From IMG/VR virus record IMGVR_UViG_2850802633_000004: a stretch of 41,734 nt of DNA. One strand, written 5' to 3'. Each line of letters starts with the position of its first letter. The first letter of the stretch is position 1. A model generated the notes under the pieces. It searched no databases and was not told where the DNA came from. It worked only from the letters and a program-made list of their open reading frames with translations. The DNA is from a virus. Taxonomy: Duplodnaviria; Heunggongvirae; Uroviricota; Caudoviricetes. Made by a program: the position numbers and the translations under genes. Below, piece after piece: positions 27,544-35,154 of the stretch.

Positions 27544-29148
27544 CTAGGTCTCCTTATAAACATCAGCCATCACATTGACCAGCCTATCAACCTCGACCTC
27601 TTTAGCATAACGGTCGTACGTAATAGACCCTGAACTATGCCCCATGATCGCCTGTGCATACGCCAACTCGACCCCATGTTGTTTTAACTGGGTCGCAACT
27701 GTATGTCTAAACGAGTGAAACGCTAAGCCGCTACGGTCTACGAGGACTTTAGGCAACAACGTCCGATTAAACCATTTACTCACCTGCTCACCGTAACCGT
27801 TCTTCATGAGACGCAGACCATCGAACACCATAGCGTCATCACCGTCAGCGCCTCTACGGGTCTCTACAAGCGCCATAAAGTCAGCCAATATAAAACCATA
27901 GGCCCCATCGACCAGAGGCACACAGCGGTCACTATGAGCGTTCTTGATGCTCTTACCGGGTAGACTACTATCGTCTTCATTGATATGAATATAAACGGTT
28001 CCCGCCTCAGTGGTCCTGACGTCTTTGACCTGTAGTTGGGCTATTTCATTGAGTCTCGCCCCAGTGATAGCAGCCAAGGCGGTAACATAATAATGATACG
28101 GCTTACCAGAGGTCTTCTGAGAGTATGCCTTAGCTGCGACCAGTAGTTGCCCCACCTGCTCCGTAGAGAAGGCGTTACGGGCCCCTGAGGCTTTACGCTG
28201 AGGGACTTTAAGCTCCAGACCCTCAGTCATGTTCTTTTTAATCAAGTCATTGCGCACAGCCCACCTAAAGACAGCAGCCATCTTAATAAGATACTTGTTG
28301 TTGATGGTAACGACATCCAGACAATCTGTCTTATCTTCACGGCTCAACAGGTCAGCAAGTGGGACATCCTTGAAGCGCTGCTTACGGTTCCTAGGTAACT
28401 GCTGGAGCACATCACGGACCCTAAGCATGTCAGCCCTGTTAGCGTCTGCATTGAGACCCAGATGGTCGAATATTTCGATTAACGCAGCGTGTGACGCCTT
28501 GTTTTCCCTTAAGGTTGCAGGCTTCCAGTTCTGATAGTTCTCCGCTTCGTATTGCTCAAAGAGGCTCGCTATGGTAATGCTAGGCGTAACTTCTGGTTTT
28601 ACTTCTGGAGCATTAACAGATAGGGACACAGAGTCTGCTTGGTTATCTTGCCTATCAATATCATTAAAAAGATCGACGTAATCTATCAGAGGCTGACTGT
28701 CTCCCGCTTCGATACGCCTCATACAGGCTTTTAGCACCTTCAGGGCCTCATTGATGTAACGATGCTGGTCAATGCTTAGCGGCTCACTAGCCAGAGCATC
28801 GGTAAGGCTCTCACCAAGTTCTCCGTATTGGTCCCGGTAGATATCCCTCATGTCAGGCTCAAAGAGATCTGAACGGCCCATAGACAGTTCACACTCAGCG
28901 ATGTCCTTAAGGTGTTCCCTCATTTCCTCGTAGGTAGCGTTGGGTCTGTCTGCGTGTATTGCCTTGAGTGCTGCCTTTATGTGCCTTGAGTAAGCCATAG
29001 CGGTGCGTCTATCCTTGGTCCGTAATGATATTGAGGTCATTCTATCATTGTTTGATTGTCTGACCCTAAGACGGAAGTAGTAGACGCCGTTACGCTGGTA
29101 GAGATAGTAGACTGCTGGAAGTTTGTGACTACTGGATAGCTGAATCAT
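27544..29148 (-). CDS. Large tyrosine recombinase/integrase (534 aa)
   Basis: Catalytic motifs ITGARLNE (Arg), HSFRHTVAT (His-x-x-Arg), HSSGSITYDRYAK (Tyr); start 115 bp downstream of tRNA-Gly 3' end. Confidence 0.85.
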   Translation of the reverse strand: MIQLSSSHKLPAVYYLYQRNGVYYFRLRVRQSNNDRMTSISLRTKDRRTAMAYSRHIKAALKAIHADRPNATYEEMREHLKDIAECELSMGRSDLFEPDMRDIYRDQYGELGESLTDALASEPLSIDQHRYINEALKVLKACMRRIEAGDSQPLIDYVDLFNDIDRQDNQADSVSLSVNAPEVKPEVTPSITIASLFEQYEAENYQNWKPATLRENKASHAALIEIFDHLGLNADANRADMLRVRDVLQQLPRNRKQRFKDVPLADLLSREDKTDCLDVVTINNKYLIKMAAVFRWAVRNDLIKKNMTEGLELKVPQRKASGARNAFSTEQVGQLLVAAKAYSQKTSGKPYHYYVTALAAITGARLNEIAQLQVKDVRTTEAGTVYIHINEDDSSLPGKSIKNAHSDRCVPLVDGAYGFILADFMALVETRRGADGDDAMVFDGLRLMKNGYGEQVSKWFNRTLLPKVLVDRSGLAFHSFRHTVATQLKQHGVELAYAQAIMGHSSGSITYDRYAKEVEVDRLVNVMADVYKET

Positions 29149-29262: not shown

Positions 29263-29337
<75 letters not shown>

Positions 29338-29340
29338 ATA

Positions 29341-29416
<76 letters not shown>

Positions 29417-29418
29417 GC

Positions 29419-29495
29419 TGGCCCACCACCGAGGACTCGAACCTCGCACCGTCAACTTAGAAGGTTGATGCTCTATCCGGATGAGCTAGTGGTGG
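29419..29495 (-). tRNA. tRNA-Arg (anticodon UCU)
   Basis: Hand-folded; acceptor CCACCAC/GTGGTGG, anticodon loop CTTCTAA, T-loop TTCGAGT, CCA end. Confidence 0.75.
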
Positions 29496-29496
29496 T

Positions 29497-29573
29497 TGGT
29501 GGCCCTTGCTGGACTTGAACCAGCGACCTGGCGATTATGAGTCGCTCGCTCTGACCAACTGAGCTAAAGGGCC
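29497..29573 (-). tRNA. tRNA with CAU anticodon (elongator Met or lysidine-modified Ile2)
   Basis: Hand-folded; acceptor GGCCCTT/AAGGGCC with G1-C72 pair (not initiator-like), anticodon loop CTCATAA, T-loop TTCAAGT, CCA end. Confidence 0.75.
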
Positions 29574-29661: not shown

Positions 29662-29684
29662 AAAAAAACCCGCATAAAGCGGGT
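29662..29684 (-). terminator. Rho-independent terminator (ACCCGC-ataaa-GCGGGT followed by U7 on minus strand)
   Basis: Hairpin plus T-run read directly; lies between the ORF6N gene stop and the tRNA cluster. Confidence 0.6.
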
Positions 29685-30334
29685 TCTTTCAAGTGTCCAT
29701 GTCTGCTATTCGCCTCGCGATACAGCTTTGCGAAGCTTACCGGAATTGAAGCAGTTTATGTGCAAAAATGCAAGAACTTTTTTAAAGCTGCATCAACCTT
29801 TCCACCAGTTTATCTCTGCGAACAACAAACCAACCATTGGCTCTCGCCAGTTCCAGCCATGACTCAAGGGAAATAACAATATCATCATCCCGTAACTGAA
29901 TTGTGGAAACAGTGACACCGCCTCTCTGATAACAGAGAACTCGCGTGTCGTAACTTTTCTGGCATGAAACTGGCGTTGACGGATCCCTTTGACTGAAATA
30001 GCAGTCTTCCAGTTTTTCGAACACATCCCACGCCTGATCGGTTTCGAGCATTTTGCCGTGGCGTGCTGCGCCTCGTTCTGTCCAGAGGATGAGGGAGCGG
30101 GCTTTGGGTGAAACTGGATTTTGTGAGTAGTTTAAAGCGACCCGCAATTCTTTAAGGTCATTACCAACAACTTTGAAAAAGTGTTTCCCTTCAACGAAGC
30201 GTACTTTGTTCTCATGATGATTCTGGCGAATACGCACCGGCTCAGTGCCGTAAAGCTGCGCCAAAAGTTCGGTGGTAATAACAGGAATCTGTGAGGTGTA
30301 CTGGCAATAGCGGACACTACCATTTGTTCTTTTT

Positions 30335-31153
30335 TTAAGCAGCCATCTGATGATATTTTTCCCTGAAGGCTGCCGGGGAGATATTCCCCAGACGAGAGTG
30401 ACGACGCTGACGATTGTAGAAAATCTCAATGTATTCCCGTATTACTGAGATGGCTTCATCCCGGTTATTAAAACGATAGTGGCTCAGGCTCTCATTTTTC
30501 AGCGTTCCCCAGAAGCTTTCCATCGGAGCGTTGTCGTAACAGTTACCTTTACGCGACATTGATGTTTTCAGACCAGACTGCTCCTGTATGACCCGGTAAT
30601 CGTATGCGCAGTACTGTGAACCTCGATCAGAGTGGTGGATTAGCCCGGCAGGTGGGCGCTGGCTCCTGAGCGCCATAAACAGGGCTTTACCTGTCAGCTC
30701 TTTTGTCATGCGCTCTCCCATGGCGTAGCCGACAATTTCACACGTATAAACATCTTTGATGCCAGCGAGGTACAACCATCCCTCCTGTGTGGCAACATAC
30801 GTCAGGTCCGCCACCCAGACCTGATTTGGTGCTGTAGGAGCGAACGTCTGGTTCAGCAGATTTGGCGCAACTGGCAGATTGTGGTTCGGGTTCGTAGTCG
30901 CTCTGAACTTGCGTTTCTGCTTACAGCGTAGCCTCAGCTCCTTACGAAGACGTGCCAGTCGGTCACGACCAACGATGATGCCATTCTCTGCCAGCTCCGT
31001 CTGGAGCCGCCGGGTTCCATATGTTTCGCGAGTGCGGATATGTGCCACCTTAATCTCCAGTTTTAGCCGCTCATCACTTTGTTTTCTGTCTGAGGGTTCA
31101 TGCTGTACCCAGTTGTAATAACCGCTCCTGGATACACCAAATACCTGACACAT
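30335..31153 (-). CDS. IS600 OrfB transposase
   Basis: 272-aa ORF. Confidence 0.9.
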   Translation of the reverse strand: MCQVFGVSRSGYYNWVQHEPSDRKQSDERLKLEIKVAHIRTRETYGTRRLQTELAENGIIVGRDRLARLRKELRLRCKQKRKFRATTNPNHNLPVAPNLLNQTFAPTAPNQVWVADLTYVATQEGWLYLAGIKDVYTCEIVGYAMGERMTKELTGKALFMALRSQRPPAGLIHHSDRGSQYCAYDYRVIQEQSGLKTSMSRKGNCYDNAPMESFWGTLKNESLSHYRFNNRDEAISVIREYIEIFYNRQRRHSRLGNISPAAFREKYHQMAA

Positions 31154-31188
31154 CGCTTCAATGGGAAATTGTTGTCGCCATTGTTCGA

Positions 31189-31491
31189 TTAACGCGTATT
31201 TTTCAGCGACTCCTGTGCAAAATACGCTGTTGCTTTTTTTAATATATCTCGCTCAAGGCGAGCTTCATTTAACGCCTTACGCAGTTGCAGAATTTCAGAT
31301 TCCAGTTCAGCCACCGTGCGGGAACCAGGAGTACCGAGCCCTTTTCTGGCGGCGGTAACCCATTGTCCTAAAGTGCCTTCAGGAAGGGATAATCGGGAAG
31401 CGCCTTCACTGATCGAAAGTTGATTTTCAAGAACCGTTCTGACAGCTTCGGCTTTGAACTCTTTAGAGTAACGTTGGGTTTTTCTGCTCAT
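31189..31491 (-). CDS. IS600 OrfA
   Basis: 100-aa ORF. Confidence 0.9.
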   Translation of the reverse strand: MSRKTQRYSKEFKAEAVRTVLENQLSISEGASRLSLPEGTLGQWVTAARKGLGTPGSRTVAELESEILQLRKALNEARLERDILKKATAYFAQESLKNTR

Positions 31492-31769
31492 TATTAGCTC
31501 CTTCTGATGCCATTCTATTTCAGGAAGGAGTGTCCGTTAAACTCAGGCTACCTCACTGGTTATGGGTGATCGGGGAGAGAGTTTCAACAGAGATTTGAGT
31601 GGTCATAACGATAACTCCGTACATTTGGAAATTATCGCCACCGACGACGCCAATCGAACTGGTGGCGAACTGTGCAGGGTTGGCGTAACCGGGTACGGAA
31701 ACCGGCGAGCCTTTCGGCTCCCCCACACAGCCCGCCATAAATCGCGAATGTGACTGTGCAAACGATATG

Positions 31770-31791
31770 AAAAAAGACGCGGGCGCGTCTC
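31770..31791 (-). terminator. tR'-like intrinsic terminator downstream of Q (AGACGCG-cc-CGCGTCT + U6)
   Basis: Hairpin and T-run read on minus strand about 60 nt downstream of the putative PR' -10. Confidence 0.6.
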
Positions 31792-31852
31792 ATATCGCTC
31801 CGTAAACATCCGGGACGCCAATCCCGACGCCAGATTTTGCTGGCGCGTGAGG

Positions 31853-31882
31853 AATATAGCCCCGGATAACAGATTGAGTCAA
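31853..31882 (-). promoter_or_regulatory. PR'-like late promoter (-35 TTGACT, 18-bp spacer, -10 TATATT)
   Basis: Hexamers read on minus strand immediately after the Q-like gene stop; classic Q-PR'-tR' arrangement. Confidence 0.55.
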
Positions 31883-32433
31883 CAAACGGTTTTTAGATCC
31901 CCGGAAGAGAATGCATCACGCATCGGTAGATAGAGCATATATTCAGCAAGATTTAGCCATACATCTACCCGACTGCAGCACGTCCGGAAACACCACTCAG
32001 GGTGTGCGTCATTCAGCAATTCAGCCATTTTACGCTTAGTCATCCCCCGCCCTTCATACCGTTGCCGGAGGACACTAATCAATCCAGGATGCTCTGCCAG
32101 CACCTCACTTATGACTCTATCAATACATAACGCCTCTGCATCAGTACAATGCGCCAGCCAGGTCTTTTGCTTGCCATTGATCATCTCTCGCAAAAACGCT
32201 TCCAGCTCAGGTTTCTCTATTCCCGCTTTTTTCATCCTGCGCAGGGCTTCATTGACGGCTGTTTTCGTCAATTTTTTGGATGCCAGCAACTGGTTAAACA
32301 TATTTCCCGTCTTACCGCCGCCAATATACGACCAGCGCCCCCACATGCGCAGTTTTCCCTGAATCCAGACACTTTCCAGCGTGGTGAGACGAAGGTGTTC
32401 CCCGCTTTTGCCTGTATTTGTTGGGTAAATCAT
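31879..32433 (-). CDS. Putative late-gene antiterminator Q (positional assignment)
   Basis: 184-aa ORF from internal Met (MIYPTNTGKSGEHL...), start overlaps ybcO-like stop (ATGA); followed by PR'/tR'-like signals; family not verified. Confidence 0.5.
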   Translation of the reverse strand: MIYPTNTGKSGEHLRLTTLESVWIQGKLRMWGRWSYIGGGKTGNMFNQLLASKKLTKTAVNEALRRMKKAGIEKPELEAFLREMINGKQKTWLAHCTDAEALCIDRVISEVLAEHPGLISVLRQRYEGRGMTKRKMAELLNDAHPEWCFRTCCSRVDVWLNLAEYMLYLPMRDAFSSGDLKTVC

Positions 32434-32720
32434 AAATAACCTTCCTTTCTCCAGATTTCTTGTGTGCGAAAAACACCTTCTGCATGCATCAGGCGTAATT
32501 CTTCTTTGGTGTAATCGCTGGTTTTTACCCGCCCGTCGATTAAATCGTGGCATGAGCTACAGGCAATCGCTGCCTGCATATCGTGTGGTTTTGTCGCTGT
32601 TCCGCACGTCCCCGCCAGCCTGTAATGCGCCAGCACAGAAGTTTCGGGATTGTGATTGCAGTAGCCAGGAATTCTGACGGTGCACATCTGCCCCCGCGCC
32701 GCTTTACGTAAATCCACCAT
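32430..32720 (-). CDS. ybcO: YbcO-like nin-region protein (DUF1364, Cys/His-rich putative nuclease)
   Basis: MVDLRKAARGQMCTVRIPGYCNHNPETSVLAH... closely parallels my recollection of E. coli DLP12 YbcO. Confidence 0.75.
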   Translation of the reverse strand: MVDLRKAARGQMCTVRIPGYCNHNPETSVLAHYRLAGTCGTATKPHDMQAAIACSSCHDLIDGRVKTSDYTKEELRLMHAEGVFRTQEIWRKEGYL

Positions 32721-33319
32721 TACGCAAACTCCAGTAACTGCGCGGCCACATTTTCGACTTCCTCCGGAGAGGAAAATTTACGGAACAGGATCCAGTTCCA
32801 CAGCACATTCAGTACAGATTTATAAACCTGCTGAAACTCGGTTTCGTCCATGTTCGCAAATGCGATAGATTTTGCCCTGCGCCCACGACTACCATCAGGA
32901 TAAATATGCTCGGTGTAAAATCCGGCCTGAATGGTTACCCACTCGCGGAAAGCGTCAAACGACTTTAGCAATGCCGTATCCCGGGTTCTGCATGTCGCAA
33001 CTGTATTAAGGTATTGCTCTGCGGCATCACTCAGGGCTGGAGTGTGTTCCCGACCTACTGATTCGCACAGGTAATCAACGAAGCCTGATACCAGTTTTCG
33101 TTCGCGAGGCGTGATCGCCCCACCGACCGGAGTCCAGTAATCAAATCCCAGTTGCAGGAGTTTGAAAAAACGCTTGTGGAATGCGTAGTTACGCACACGC
33201 TTAAAGTCTGCGTGTATCCACTCACCTATTTTGATTTGATGCAAAAAATCGCAACTCTCCGGCGTCGCCGGGAGAAGTAATCCGGAAGAGGTTTGTTTGA
33301 CCAGTTGTATATGCGCCAT
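32720..33319 (-). CDS. Lambdoid nin-region protein (DUF1367-like), 199 aa
   Basis: ORF immediately upstream of ybcO-like gene with overlapping start/stop; family from memory. Confidence 0.5.
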   Translation of the reverse strand: MAHIQLVKQTSSGLLLPATPESCDFLHQIKIGEWIHADFKRVRNYAFHKRFFKLLQLGFDYWTPVGGAITPRERKLVSGFVDYLCESVGREHTPALSDAAEQYLNTVATCRTRDTALLKSFDAFREWVTIQAGFYTEHIYPDGSRGRRAKSIAFANMDETEFQQVYKSVLNVLWNWILFRKFSSPEEVENVAAQLLEFA

Positions 33320-33452
33320 CGTAGTTCTCCGCTGGCGCAGTAGAATGGGTGTTCAGCCCGTTATGTAGTATACCAGAATTAATGCCAATACTAACAGGGT
33401 AATGCTGCCAACTTACTGATTTAGTGTATGATGGTGATTTTAAGGTGCTTGC

Positions 33453-33728
33453 GTGGCTTCCATTTCCATCAGATGTCCTTCCTGCTCCGCTACTGAAGGC
33501 GTGGTGCGTAACGGCAAAAGCACTGCCGGACATCAGCGCTATCTCTGCTCTCATTGCCGTAAAACATGGCAACTACAGTTCACTTACACCGCCTCTCAGC
33601 CCGGTACGCACCAGAAAATCATTGATATGGCCATGAATGGCGTCGGATGTCGCGCCAGTGCACGCATTATGGGCGTTGGCCTCAACACGGTTTTACGTCA
33701 CTTAAAAAACTCAGGCCGCAGTCGGTAA
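33453..33728 (+). CDS. insA: IS1 InsA
   Basis: 91-aa ORF. Confidence 0.9.
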
Positions 33729-34150
33729 CCTCGCGCATACAACCGGGCAGTGATGTGATTGTCTGCGCTGAAATGGACGAACATTGGGGCTACGTCGGTG
33801 CTAAATCACGTCAGCGCTGGCTGTTTTACGCGTATGACAGGATACGGAGGACGGTTGTGGCGCACGTCTTCGGTGAACGCACTCTGGCCACACTGGAGCG
33901 TCTTCTGAGCCTGCTGTCGGCCTTTGAGGTCGTGGTATGGATGACGGATGGCTGGCCGCTGTATGAACCACGCCTGAAGGGAAAGCTGCACGTTATCAGC
34001 AAGCGTTACACTCAGCGCATTGAGCGACATAATCTGAATCTGAGACAACATCTGGCAAGGCTGGTACGGAAGTCACTGTCGTTCTCAAAATCGGTGGAGC
34101 TGCATGACAAGGTCATCGGGCATTATCTGAACATAAAACACTATCAGTAA
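33647..34150 (+). CDS. insB: IS1 InsB
   Basis: 167-aa ORF. Confidence 0.85.
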
Positions 34151-34167
34151 GTTGGAGTCATTACCTA

Positions 34168-34655: not shown

Positions 34656-34811
34656 TTACTCCTCAGGTTCGTAAGCTGTGAAGACAGCGACCTCCGTCTG
34701 GCCGGTTCGGATTCGTACCTCGCAGAGGTCTTTCCTCGTTACCAGTGCCGTCACTATGACGGTTAAACAGATGACGATCAGGGCGATTAACATCGCCTTT
34801 TGCTGCTTCAT
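34656..34811 (-). CDS. hokD: Hok/Gef-family type I toxin (HokD/RelF-like, 51 aa)
   Basis: MKQQKAMLIALIVICLTVIVTALVTRKDLCEVRIRTGQTEVAVFTAYEPEE matches my recollection of E. coli HokD; in-frame upstream extension in ORF track is probably not translated. Confidence 0.85.
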   Translation of the reverse strand: MKQQKAMLIALIVICLTVIVTALVTRKDLCEVRIRTGQTEVAVFTAYEPEE

Positions 34812-35154
34812 AGCCTGCTTCTCCTTGCCTTTCGGCACGTAAGAGGCTAACCTACATTTGTGAGACATAGATTGGGCCTCAGATTAATGTTAAGCGTCTT
34901 GCAGGACGCGTAATGTTAACTGGGGCTTTTCTCTGTCTGCCTTACAGTGGCATGCCCGAGGCAGACAGCCTCAAGCACCCGCAGCAATCTTACCGATACC
35001 GATAAGAAAACGCTATTTTTTATTGCCAGCACCTTCTATCCAGGCTAATTTATCTGCGTCAGAACGGCGCAATGCGCTCGCCTGAGATACGTTTACTTGC
35101 CATGGTAACAACAGGTAACGGCAATTGCTGTTTCTGTTTTGTTTCCTTCAAAAA

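Follow-up and report, generated by a model that had tools for sequence, protein, structure and literature searches.

The closest described counterparts of the locus analysed here come from antirepressor control and from late antitermination in phages. In Gifsy-1, the elements are ordered antQ - PisrK-isrK - orf45/STnc1160 - anrP - isrJ (Hershko-Shalev et al., 2016; PMC4825925), and experiments on that locus showed that its homologue of the isrK promoter drives anrP transcription (PMC4825925). The immI operon of P1/P7 is laid out as P51 - a1 b1 - c4 - a2 b2 - icd - ant, according to the account of Citron and Schuster (1990) as given in PMC8201110; there, a C4 antisense RNA carried on the same transcript is described as blocking translation of the antirepressor operon, with target copies on both sides of c4. 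For antitermination, the reference system is Q21 with the qut site at PR'21 (Yin et al., 2019, 10.1101/651190; Shi et al., 2019, PMC6606751). In lambda (Q-PR'-6S RNA-tR') and in Stx phages (PR'/StxS), Q is encoded just upstream of a constitutive promoter that yields a short terminated leader ahead of tRNA and lysis genes.

The window that we analysed is a stretch of 41,734 nucleotides of viral DNA (IMG/VR record IMGVR_UViG_2850802633_000004). A sequence-only reading had proposed that an intact Q-PR'-tR' module survives in this window, with a 184-aa gene as Q and with the promoter and terminator directly behind it as PR' and tR'. The Q gene is indeed intact, but the adjoining promoter and terminator belong to an isrK-type cassette. 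We consider it probable that the locus contains two separate regulatory units, namely an intact DUF1133 Q gene and an isrK-type cassette inserted before the distal target of Q (Table 1).

Table 1. Features of the Q, isrK-C4-ant and distal promoter region, in the order in which they follow one another on the minus strand.
Feature	Positions	Strand	Details
IS1 end	~33398		~79 bp upstream of the DUF1367 gene
DUF1367 (NinB/Orf-like) gene, first of the surviving nin-Q block	32720..33319	(-)	PF07105, 4.8e-98; phrog_319
ybcO (DUF1364, putative nuclease)	32430..32720	(-)	PF07102, 1.4e-45
Q-type antiterminator gene	31879..32433	(-)	184 aa, DUF1133 family, full length
Predicted DNA-recognition helix of Q			~residues 149-162, FRTCCSRVDVWLNL
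isrK promoter (P1 P51-like)	31853..31882	(-)	-35 TTGACT 31882..31877; 18-nt spacer; -10 TATATT 31858..31853
IsrK-like leader RNA	31770..31846	(-)	77 nt; two hairpins plus intrinsic terminator
Decoy sites in IsrK leader	31821..31815; 31804..31799		b1 UUGGCGU; a1 UACGGA
IsrK terminator hairpin	31791..31774, with T-run to 31768	(-)	GAGACGC-GCCC-GCGTCTT + T6; 62 nt past the -10
C4-type antisense RNA	31658..31742	(-)	RF01695, 77.6 bits (threshold 45), positions 1-87/87
C4 segments	31699..31693; 31686..31680		a' UCCGUAC; b' ACGCCAA
ant translation-initiation region	31604..31653	(-)	b2 UUGGCGU 31653..31647; a2 GUACGGA 31622..31616
ant start codon	31606..31604		ATG; a2 overlaps GGAG Shine-Dalgarno
ORF6N antirepressor gene (ant), 5' fragment	31557..31606	(-)	first 16-17 codons, cut by IS600
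IS600 insertion (ends approximate)	30291..31556	(-)	flanks map to 4875 and 4873 of the intact relative L016
IS600 ORFs	31189..31491; 30335..31153
ORF6N antirepressor gene, 3' part	29782..30293	(-)	PF10543, 5.6e-18
Candidate cognate PR' of Q	29745..29773	(-)	-35 TTGCAT 29773..29768; TG-extended -10 TTCAAT 29750..29745
Candidate Q-binding element			17-nt spacer of distal promoter, TTTTGCACATAAACTGC
Candidate sigma-dependent pause element	29739..29734		-10-like hexamer TAAGCT
Candidate PR' leader and tR'	29662..29739	(-)	~76 nt
Conserved box in distal leader	29736..29713		+3 to +26, GCTTCGCAAAGCTGTATCGCGAGG
Distal terminator	29685..29662	(-)	AACCCGC-TTTAT-GCGGGTT + T-run
Phage tRNA cluster	29263..29573	(-)	four tRNAs, Met-Arg-Thr-Gly

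As had been noted from the sequence, the 184-aa gene abuts ybcO, with its ATG overlapping the ybcO stop codon as ATGA. The comparison with Q families suggested at that time gave a clear answer. The protein matches DUF1133 (2.7e-108; primary family PF06576), is colinear with members of this family from end to end, and is included in PHROG 753, 'anti-termination protein Q-like'. Its score against PF06530, the Q21/Q933W family, is marginal (27.6 bits versus a gathering score of 26), and stronger support comes from a profile of 37 DUF1133 sequences that matches the Q21 chains 6p18/6jnx with E=1.8e-8. Furthermore, when an AF2 model of the protein (pLDDT 80-95 in the C-terminal half, low confidence in the N-terminal half) was searched against the PDB with Foldseek, the best 11 matches were all Q21, with probability 1.0 and a target-normalised TM of 0.64-0.72. 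The S-K-(H/R) and T-C motifs are kept at the positions of Q21 S93-K94-H95 and T125-C126, whereas the DUF1133 protein is ~20% identical to Q21, belongs to a separate Pfam family and is ~20 residues longer. In intact relatives, Q lies between nin-region genes and holin/endolysin/terminase genes. The profile matches and the predicted fold indicate that the intact 184-aa protein is remotely homologous to the Q antiterminator of phage 21, and DUF1133 is a narrow enterobacterial branch related to that protein. This homology argues for the same mechanism, and the protein is predicted to have antitermination activity at a cognate qut site. None of the three proteins Q, YbcO and DUF1367 has an NCBIfam model, and a full-text literature search for 'DUF1133' returned no match and no experimental paper.

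The promoter-like sequence and the terminator that had been assigned to PR' and tR' are both present as described, and TTGACT-18-TATATT is the best promoter-like site in a 5-kb scan (10/12). Taken alone, the consensus scans do not rise above chance (5 promoter-like sites versus 4.8 expected, and 8 terminator-like sites versus 5.2 expected), but the promoter-leader-terminator unit as a whole is far above it. The leader matches the Rfam isrK model (RF01394) with 75.6 bits (threshold 50; E=1.8e-15) over positions 1-77/77, and the c4-a1b1 model (RF03163) matches at 31859..31807 with 52.2 bits (threshold 46.7) over positions 1-53/53. The -35 hexamer of this promoter includes the Q stop codon TGA. 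The sequence CAAAAT, a -10-like hexamer at ~+8 to +13 of the isrK transcript, forms the conserved loop in hairpin 1 of IsrK.

Downstream of IsrK, and on the same strand, a C4-type RNA precedes the ant start. In the window, the b' segment of C4 has 7-nt complements in both the IsrK and the ant targets, and the a' segment has complements of 6 nt (a1) and 7 nt (a2). Among relatives, which fall into four b' and five a' specificity classes, the exact complements measure 4-9 nt in the IsrK of the same locus and 6-9 nt in its own ant 5'UTR. Mean complement length is 5.8-7.1 nt for cognate versus 4.4-5.6 nt for non-cognate pairs, and changes in a' or b' are compensated across the 4 b-classes and 5 a-classes. 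These counts of exact complements to a' and b' were used in place of whole-RNA duplex energies, which do not discriminate between cognate and non-cognate combinations of whole C4 and whole target (-38.0 versus -35.0 kcal/mol) because long spurious duplexes dominate them.

The locus therefore invites comparison with both antirepressor systems. Like Gifsy-1, it has the order isrK, C4 region, antirepressor, a cassette -35 that overlaps the end of the Q gene, Rfam matches to IsrK, c4-a1b1 and C4, an antirepressor start that is ~80% identical at the DNA level, and a short terminated RNA unit after the antirepressor gene (isrJ there, the 29739-29662 leader here). Unlike Gifsy-1, where Q is of the PF06323 (Q82) type, the Q gene here encodes a non-homologous, Q21-like DUF1133 protein; the a-site specificity is UCCGUAC rather than CGGUGAU; the unit after ant is unrelated in sequence to isrJ; the upstream ORF is in frame with ant, whereas Gifsy-1 has a separate 45-codon ORF; and ant has been destroyed by IS600. 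With P1/P7 immI, as summarized in the source cited above, the locus shares a C4 RNA on the antirepressor transcript with target copies on both of its sides, and the Rfam C4 and c4-a1b1 models match here. In contrast to immI, the locus has no recognisable icd gene of its own; its antirepressor belongs to the ORF6N family, its upstream target copy has its own intrinsic terminator to give a discrete 77-nt RNA, and it resides in a lambdoid prophage instead of a plasmid prophage.

We compared 80 DUF1133 loci, of which 25 carry the isrK-C4-ant cassette and 55 lack it. Relatives in Salmonella, E. coli and Stx phages share the isrK unit as a conserved block that starts at its -35, and homology to the cassettes behind ninE (Stx phages, 3 kb upstream of Q) and behind the PF06323 Q gene (Gifsy-1) starts exactly at the -35. 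Across cassette-bearing loci, the first 30 nt after the Q stop, comprising the isrK -35, spacer and -10, are nearly invariant, and three cassette specificity types are common to both cassette-bearing Q-helix groups. Judged by this distribution, the isrK-C4-ant cassette is a self-contained module that also occurs in contexts unrelated to DUF1133 Q.

In the cassette-free loci, Q is followed directly by another conserved promoter-leader-terminator unit, which begins at the Q stop codon in all 55. In 24 of the 25 cassette loci, the same element lies after ant, 848-1058 nt downstream of that stop codon. Its hexamer TAnGCT is fixed in 76/76 loci, and the preceding 5 nt vary. Exact core matches support the leader and terminator across loci, and the leader folds with -32.6 kcal/mol (z=-4.2). 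Beyond the terminator the contexts diverge into lysis genes, or tRNAs and then lysis genes: phage 666R9 has the order Q, distal unit, holin, endolysin, Rz, and L016 has distal unit, tRNAs, holin, lysozyme, Rz. A comparable layout is found behind Q in Providencia, Edwardsiella and Rac-SA53, with relatives down to 33% identity; in a Klebsiella subgroup of DUF1133, another kind of unit follows Q, and the distal element is accordingly not universal in the family.

A simple scan misses the distal promoter because its -10 has no A at position 2, where one is usual, and a consensus scan of the intact relative pPE4 from Q to the holin gene found no promoter besides that of isrK. Consensus scans could thus not settle the PR' question, and comparative data were used instead. 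Rfam has no family matching the distal leader, and a full-text literature search for its conserved box returned no match. The isrK model gives a hit on this leader of 21.5 bits (E=0.18), which we rejected as generic hairpin-plus-terminator similarity, not homology.

In cassette-free relatives, Q is followed by a promoter with a -10-like hexamer close to +1 and by a terminator, which is the arrangement known from Q cassettes such as that of Q21. Unlike the Q21 system, the distal promoter has a non-consensus, TG-extended -10 and no TGAGCA direct repeat (none was seen by eye in the spacer), the +3 to +26 box is without a described counterpart, and Q and the candidate site lie 2.1 kb apart in the window, separated by the cassette and IS600. 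The predicted short terminated leader ahead of tRNA or lysis genes, with Q just upstream of a promoter expected to be constitutive, also resembles the lambda and Stx-phage arrangements, although the lambda Q protein (PF03589) is non-homologous and the leader sequences are unrelated.

Three variants of the predicted Q recognition helix pair with three -35/spacer variants of the distal unit, in 52/52, 15/15 and 12/12 loci. The helix variants read CSRVDVWL, RNRIDAWL and EKRIANWL, and the spacers are of the GCAC, AGCC and ACGC types. The distal variant follows the helix variant in 79/79 loci, a count from closely related, physically linked sequences (Q proteins 87-96% identical) that represent a small number of non-independent lineages. 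In Q21, the counterparts of the variable helix positions are A124/R127/R128, of which A124 and R127 are described as positioned towards the QBE DNA (PMC6606751). The isrK promoter shows no variation with the helix variants. Taken together, these comparisons suggest that the distal unit at 29773-29662, directly ahead of the tRNA cluster, is most likely the target promoter of Q.

From the family memberships, RNA complementarities, linkage and covariation observed here, we infer the following course of transcription, pausing, Q binding and antitermination. The constitutive isrK promoter would make the short IsrK leader, and part of the transcripts would read through the leader terminator. The read-through RNA would contain C4, whose a' and b' segments are expected to pair with a2 and b2 over the ant ribosome-binding region and leave ant untranslated. 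Since IsrK carries copies of the C4 target sites (a1/b1), it could compete with the ant target for C4; by homology, IsrK may activate ant as in Gifsy-1, or may merely titrate C4. The cassette is presumed to have inserted between Q and the site on which Q acts. There, with Q bound in the spacer of the distal promoter, RNA polymerase that has paused at TAAGCT would take up Q and then read through the distal terminator. The earlier proposal of a late transcript running into the ORF6N gene and the tRNAs was right about the IS600-split gene and the tRNA cluster, but it mixed two transcription units: the isrK transcript would run into C4, ant and IS600, and the candidate late transcript into the tRNA cluster, whose genes are candidates for its first genes.

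Three other explanations were weighed. The best of them is that the distal unit is not a Q target and serves instead as an independent small-RNA gene or as the promoter of the tRNA cluster, with DUF1133 acting otherwise, for example as an activator. The non-consensus distal -10, the lack of an experimental record for this unit in the literature, and a weak promoter-like site (TTTGCA-18-TATTAT) directly before tRNA-Met are compatible with it. We nevertheless judge it unlikely, as the unit begins at the Q stop codon in every cassette-free locus and is followed by lysis genes, takes the place that PR'-SDPE-terminator has in the Q21 papers, and covaries with the predicted recognition helix of a protein homologous to Q21.

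Still less probable, in our view, is a dual use in which Q also modifies polymerase from the cassette promoter, giving an antirepressor boost and positive feedback. The cassette does stand directly behind Q in two unrelated Q families, and in Gifsy-1 cells carrying antQ, expression of an anrP transcriptional fusion rose 8-fold when IsrK was provided in trans (PMC4825925, Table 1B). However, this effect could equally reflect a relief of polarity at the onset of translation. Dual use would also require one promoter, devoid of Q-specific sequence variation, to serve non-homologous Q proteins, and the cassette also functions at nin-region sites distant from Q.

The original assignment of 31882-31853 as PR' and of the hairpin at 31791-31768 as tR', with Q loading there for late transcription, is the least probable of all: it accounts for the position against the Q gene, the sole strong consensus promoter between Q and holin in pPE4, the strong terminator ~77 nt from the isrK start and the -10-like CAAAAT, but the 31882-31770 unit is a full-length isrK/c4-a1b1 match whose conserved bases are explained by C4 pairing, it recurs behind ninE and behind an unrelated Q, it is absent from 55/80 DUF1133 loci in which a promoter-terminator unit and lysis genes still follow Q, it does not change with the Q helix, and its terminator is followed by C4 and ant and not by late genes.

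Returning to two separate units, a broader joint reading is that DUF1133 comprises an unstudied lineage of antiterminators, related to Q21, that has its own qut architecture and an undescribed PR' leader small RNA, and that the isrK-C4-ant cassette has lodged repeatedly between Q genes of unrelated families and their PR'. We give this combination about an even chance. In such a qut architecture, Q would bind within the -35/spacer and polymerase would pause at TAnGCT, where the transcript starts, with the conserved +3 to +26 box as a third element. As a prophage small RNA not described before, the ~76-nt leader would have its counterparts in lambda 6S and StxS, and it may still be produced from the decayed Shigella prophage. 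By analogy of position, IsrJ of Salmonella is suggested to be a PR' leader as well. If the joint reading holds, tR' could double as the terminator of the antirepressor operon, given the location of the cassette between Q and PR'. All components are of known kinds.

For annotation, these observations counsel caution, as a strong promoter and terminator behind Q in lambdoid prophages are not always PR' and tR'; in about one third of DUF1133 Q loci they are those of an isrK/C4 antirepressor switch. With the distal unit, a Q family that has no experimental record also gains a qut candidate that is open to testing, together with a predicted specificity code in which three recognition-helix variants correspond to three spacer variants. 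The distal -10, TTCAAT, depends on its TG extension.

The surroundings of the locus are decayed. Homology to intact relatives begins at 33398, next to the IS1 end, and stops at 29263, the end of the tRNA cluster. No second copy of the tRNA-Gly 3' end, as might mark the limit of an island beside the integrase, occurs in the window. Between 30291 and 29263 the window is 96.6% identical to L016, in which the ORF6N gene is intact and encodes 185 aa; this gene is annotated as an antirepressor in Stx phages. The flanks of IS600 overlap by 3 bp, suggesting a target duplication by the element. The insertion splits the protein gene at codon 17, so that the output of the antirepressor circuit is lost, and leaves the RNA genes of the cassette intact. 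The arrangement is shared by 124 complete genomes, and in the E. coli genomes listed among them RefSeq annotates only the two flanking proteins and leaves the RNA genes unannotated. What the Shigella flexneri locus has lost is its late genes and its antirepressor output; the Q gene, the two small-RNA genes and the candidate PR' leader are intact and could still be expressed.

The 184-aa protein encoded next to ybcO had been taken for a Q-type antiterminator, and its family assignments, Q21 matches and synteny bear this out. It is a full-length DUF1133 protein (2.7e-108), is assigned to PHROG 753 ('anti-termination protein Q-like'), and scores just above the gathering score of PF06530 (27.6 bits versus 26), the Q21/Q933W family and one of three Q families (Yin et al., 10.1101/651190). 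Deeper profiles improve the match to Q21 structures: the single sequence gives E=0.013, a profile of 11 sequences 7e-5, and one of 37 sequences, with members from Proteus, Providencia, Xenorhabdus and Citrobacter among them, 1.8e-8. The AlphaFold2 model is confident in the C-terminal half only, yet Q21 takes the first 11 places among its PDB matches (probability 1.0, target-normalised TM 0.64-0.72), followed by AlpA at E ~1. DUF1133 is narrow (72 representatives at 50% clustering), and the identical protein, a Shigella flexneri 'putative bacteriophage protein', occurs on at least 1000 contigs. Intact relatives carry the gene between DUF1367/ybcO on one side and holin, endolysin, Rz and terminase genes on the other. 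We found no link of DUF1133 proteins to Q21 in the searchable literature, and the relationship suggested here by sequence and model is a new, if modest, proposal.

The sequence-only reading had joined this gene to the adjoining promoter and terminator as a Q-PR'-tR' late module. Every feature it described is present (ORF, ATGA overlap, promoter, hairpin with T-run), and the TGA stop of Q sits within the TTGACT -35. Such consensus scans prove little by themselves, since the number of hits is not above the chance level given by shuffling (5 promoter-like sites found versus 4.8 expected; 8 terminator-like sites versus 5.2). The identity of Q stands, but Rfam matches, genomic contexts and RNA complementarity assign the adjoining promoter and terminator to an isrK-C4-ant cassette.

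Features of the Q region, other parts of the window and comparison loci (positions refer to the window unless a locus is named)
Feature	Position	Strand	Remarks
Q gene, 184-aa ORF	31879-32433	-	ATG overlaps ybcO (PF07102) stop as ATGA
Promoter TTGACT-18-TATATT	31882-31853	-	10/12; best promoter-like site in surrounding 5 kb
c4-a1b1	31859-31807	-	Rfam, 52.2 bits
isrK	31846-31770	-	Rfam, 75.6 bits, model positions 1-77/77
Hairpin with T-run	31791-31768	-	62 nt past -10
C4 antisense RNA	31742-31658	-	Rfam, 77.6 bits
Phage_ASH (PF10554) match	31738-31598	-	translation of C4-encoding stretch
ant start	31606	-	
IS600	30291-31556		splits ORF6N gene at codon 17; 3-bp overlap of flanks
Distal unit	29773-29662	-	both conserved cores exact
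Tyrosine-recombinase gene, 534 aa (PF00589)	27544-29148	-	starts ~115 bp beyond tRNA-Gly 3' end (29263)
IS1	~33398-34165		between hok/sok module and DUF1367-ybcO-Q block
sok	34806-34980		RF01794
Second isrK	6927-7003	+	59.6 bits
Second C4	7028-7115	+	76.7 bits
ORF with Ash and Rha (PF09669) domains	6876-7508	+	
Second Phage_ASH (PF10554) match	6915-7202	+	also spans isrK, E=5.9e-17
CssrB (chromosome-encoded Shigella sRNA B)	2631-2813	-	Rfam, 151.6 bits
ALIL pseudoknot (IS3-family frameshift element)	15664-15780	+	Rfam
isrJ	L004 (Gifsy-1) 5873-5947		directly after anrP
isrJ-like sequence	L086 (Klebsiella phage KO-TP1) 2501-2587		end of Q82-type Q gene
Klebsiella-branch post-Q unit	L087 3079-3175; L090 3079-3170		Klebsiella phages
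Paired cassettes	L016 (intact relative) 1289-1618 and 4551-4880		L028 (related prophage) likewise

The isrK, c4-a1b1 and C4 matches all exceed their gathering scores, and together with ant they share the layout of the Gifsy-1 isrK locus, where the isrK promoter was shown to drive anrP transcription past the IsrK terminator and where the gene immediately upstream, antQ, is Q-like (PMC4825925). The same layout is found in the P1 immI operon, whose C4 RNA controls the Ant antirepressor (PMC8201110). When six cassette copies are aligned, homology starts exactly at the -35, and the contexts differ: the cassette follows a DUF1133 Q in the window and pPE4, a Q of the Q82 type (PF06323) in Gifsy-1, and ninE in Stx phages, where Q lies 3 kb further downstream. 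The b' segment occurs in four variants (ACGCCAA, GTGCTAA, GTTCCAA and GTTCCTAA) and the a' segment in five, each with exact complements in its own IsrK leader (4-9 nt) and its own ant 5'UTR (6-9 nt); mean complement lengths are 5.8-7.1 nt for cognate and 4.4-5.6 nt for non-cognate pairs. The window's a2 overlaps the GGAG Shine-Dalgarno of ant. These compensated changes support a C4/IsrK/ant RNA circuit. The promoter, short RNA and terminator after Q are thus completely explained as the leading part of a cassette for antirepressor control.

Several observations attach to these cassettes. The Phage_ASH reading frame is continuous with that of the antirepressor from its ATG; this stretch may serve as an RNA gene and be translated as well, as has been reported of Gifsy-1 orf45, or else PF10554 may partly model translated RNA genes. 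The second isrK/C4 pair has its own specificity (b sites GUGGAAA/UUUCCAC) and leads into the Ash/Rha ORF, and an IS-type transposase ORF upstream indicates that its original context is lost. The isrK-C4-ant cassette is present twice in some related prophages (L016, L028): besides the copy after Q, there is another 3.3-4.1 kb upstream, in the nin region. The two L016 copies share b specificity and differ in a specificity. The pPE4 record (PP818812.1, 'Actinobacillus phage vB_Apl-pPE4') matches the Shigella/E. coli prophage at 95.6% identity throughout the nin-Q-cassette region. This would not be expected of a phage labelled with a Pasteurellaceae host, and the host label may be wrong.

A better candidate for the site of Q action emerged from 80 IMG/VR loci with close relatives of the window Q. 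In 25 of these, a 184-aa Q ending SSGDLKTVC or a near variant is followed by the cassette; the other class (55/80) has a 180-aa Q and lacks the cassette, and its Q stop falls inside the -35 of TTGATT-TTTTACGCATAAACTGC-TTCAAT, followed by TATGCT, GCTTCGCAAAGCTGTATCGCGAGG and a hairpin with T-run. Of the 25 cassette loci, 24 have this unit after the ant stop, and the contig of the other is too short; in the window it is the distal unit at 29773-29662. Past its terminator the loci diverge into several contexts, among them lysis genes, or the Met-Arg-Thr-Gly tRNA cluster and then holin, lysozyme and Rz. A qut unit linked to Q and placed at a mosaic joint would be expected to behave in this way. 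The Q genes of Rac-SA53 (70% identity), Providencia phage PSTCR8lys (43%) and Edwardsiella phage EPP-1 (33%) lead into a similar arrangement, made up of a -35, a spacer containing TTTAC(C/G)(G/C)A(T/A)AAA, a -10, TAnGCT, a GCTnnGCnAAGCTG box and a terminator at ~+75 to +90. TAnGCT is invariant in 76/76 loci while the five preceding bases vary, which is consistent with a sigma-dependent pause element close to +1, like those of lambda and phage 21. The distal promoter is probably the cognate site of Q. The Klebsiella DUF1133 branch (63-65% identity, 192 aa) has a different, shorter post-Q unit (TTGAAT-18-TTAAAG, terminator ~45 nt downstream), so the qut sequence is not uniform across the family.

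Covariation between protein and DNA points to the same site. The two Q classes meet at a mosaic joint near residue 148, the start of a helix aligning with the Q21 recognition helix H6. Among loci that are closely related and linked, which is the weakness of this sample, each of three helix variants always occurs with its own -35/spacer variant of the distal promoter: TCEKRIANWL with TTGATTT(T/C)TTACG(C/T) (52/52), TCRNRIDAWL with TTGCAATTTTAGCC (15/15), and the window type, TCCSRVDVWL, with TTGCATTTTTGCAC (12/12). Within the cassette-bearing class, three cassette specificity types are present in both helix groups, indicating that recombination has reassorted the cassette that lies between Q and the distal promoter; despite this, the pairing of helix and spacer is retained in 27/27 loci. 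The isrK promoter (-35, spacer and -10, the first 30 nt past the Q stop) is nearly invariant across the cassette-bearing loci. Residues A124, R127 and R128 of Q21 line up with the variable helix positions, and A124 and R127 are described as positioned towards QBE DNA (PMC6606751). We regard this covariation as the strongest computational argument for the distal promoter as the putative cognate site of Q. Neither this qut candidate nor the specificity code predicted for it was found in the searchable literature, and both are modest novelties.

The cassette placement recurs. In Gifsy-1, the sRNA gene isrJ occupies the position of the window's distal unit, and in cassette-free Klebsiella and Enterobacter phages the ends of Q82-type Q genes lead into isrJ-like sequence, starting with its -35, and then into holin and endolysin genes. 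Two unrelated Q families therefore have the cassette between Q and its own promoter-leader-terminator unit. From these comparisons IsrJ seems to be the PR' leader RNA for an antiterminator of the Q82 type, a reading not stated in the IsrK paper (PMC4825925); neither it nor the recurrent placement was found in the searchable literature. We also infer that tR' may double as the terminator of the antirepressor operon, in keeping with the reported continuation of the ~910-nt read-through transcript of Gifsy-1 through isrJ.

In the intact ancestor, PisrK would yield IsrK plus some read-through RNA, from which C4 would be released to block the ant ribosome-binding site via a2/b2, while IsrK, via a1/b1, would compete for C4 or remodel the long RNA. 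Ant would inactivate the prophage repressor, early transcription would then reach Q, and Q would bind the distal-promoter spacer and load onto RNA polymerase paused at TAAGCT. The modified polymerase would then transcribe beyond the 29685-29662 terminator and on through the genes for tRNAs, lysis and morphogenesis.

The surrounding decay that had been described is real. An IS1 end lies ~79 bp upstream of the DUF1367 gene, IS600 interrupts the ORF6N antirepressor gene (ant), and homology to intact prophages ends at the tRNA-Gly 3' end, past which an integrase-bearing segment replaces the late genes. All that is left intact in this window is the Q gene, the genes for the IsrK and C4 RNAs, and the candidate PR' leader. 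The spacer holding IS1 is uninterrupted in two relatives (pPE4 and L091), and the insertion probably cuts Q off from early-promoter transcription. Homology stops exactly where the recombinase segment adjoins tRNA-Gly; this segment may be an integrative element inserted in the prophage tRNA gene, and the window holds no second copy of the tRNA-Gly 3' end. At least five IS600 copies are present in the window. Every component is of a known kind (Q21-like antiterminator, isrK/C4 RNAs, ORF6N antirepressor, IS600), and the Q-cassette arrangement occurs in 124 of 5426 complete E. coli genomes.
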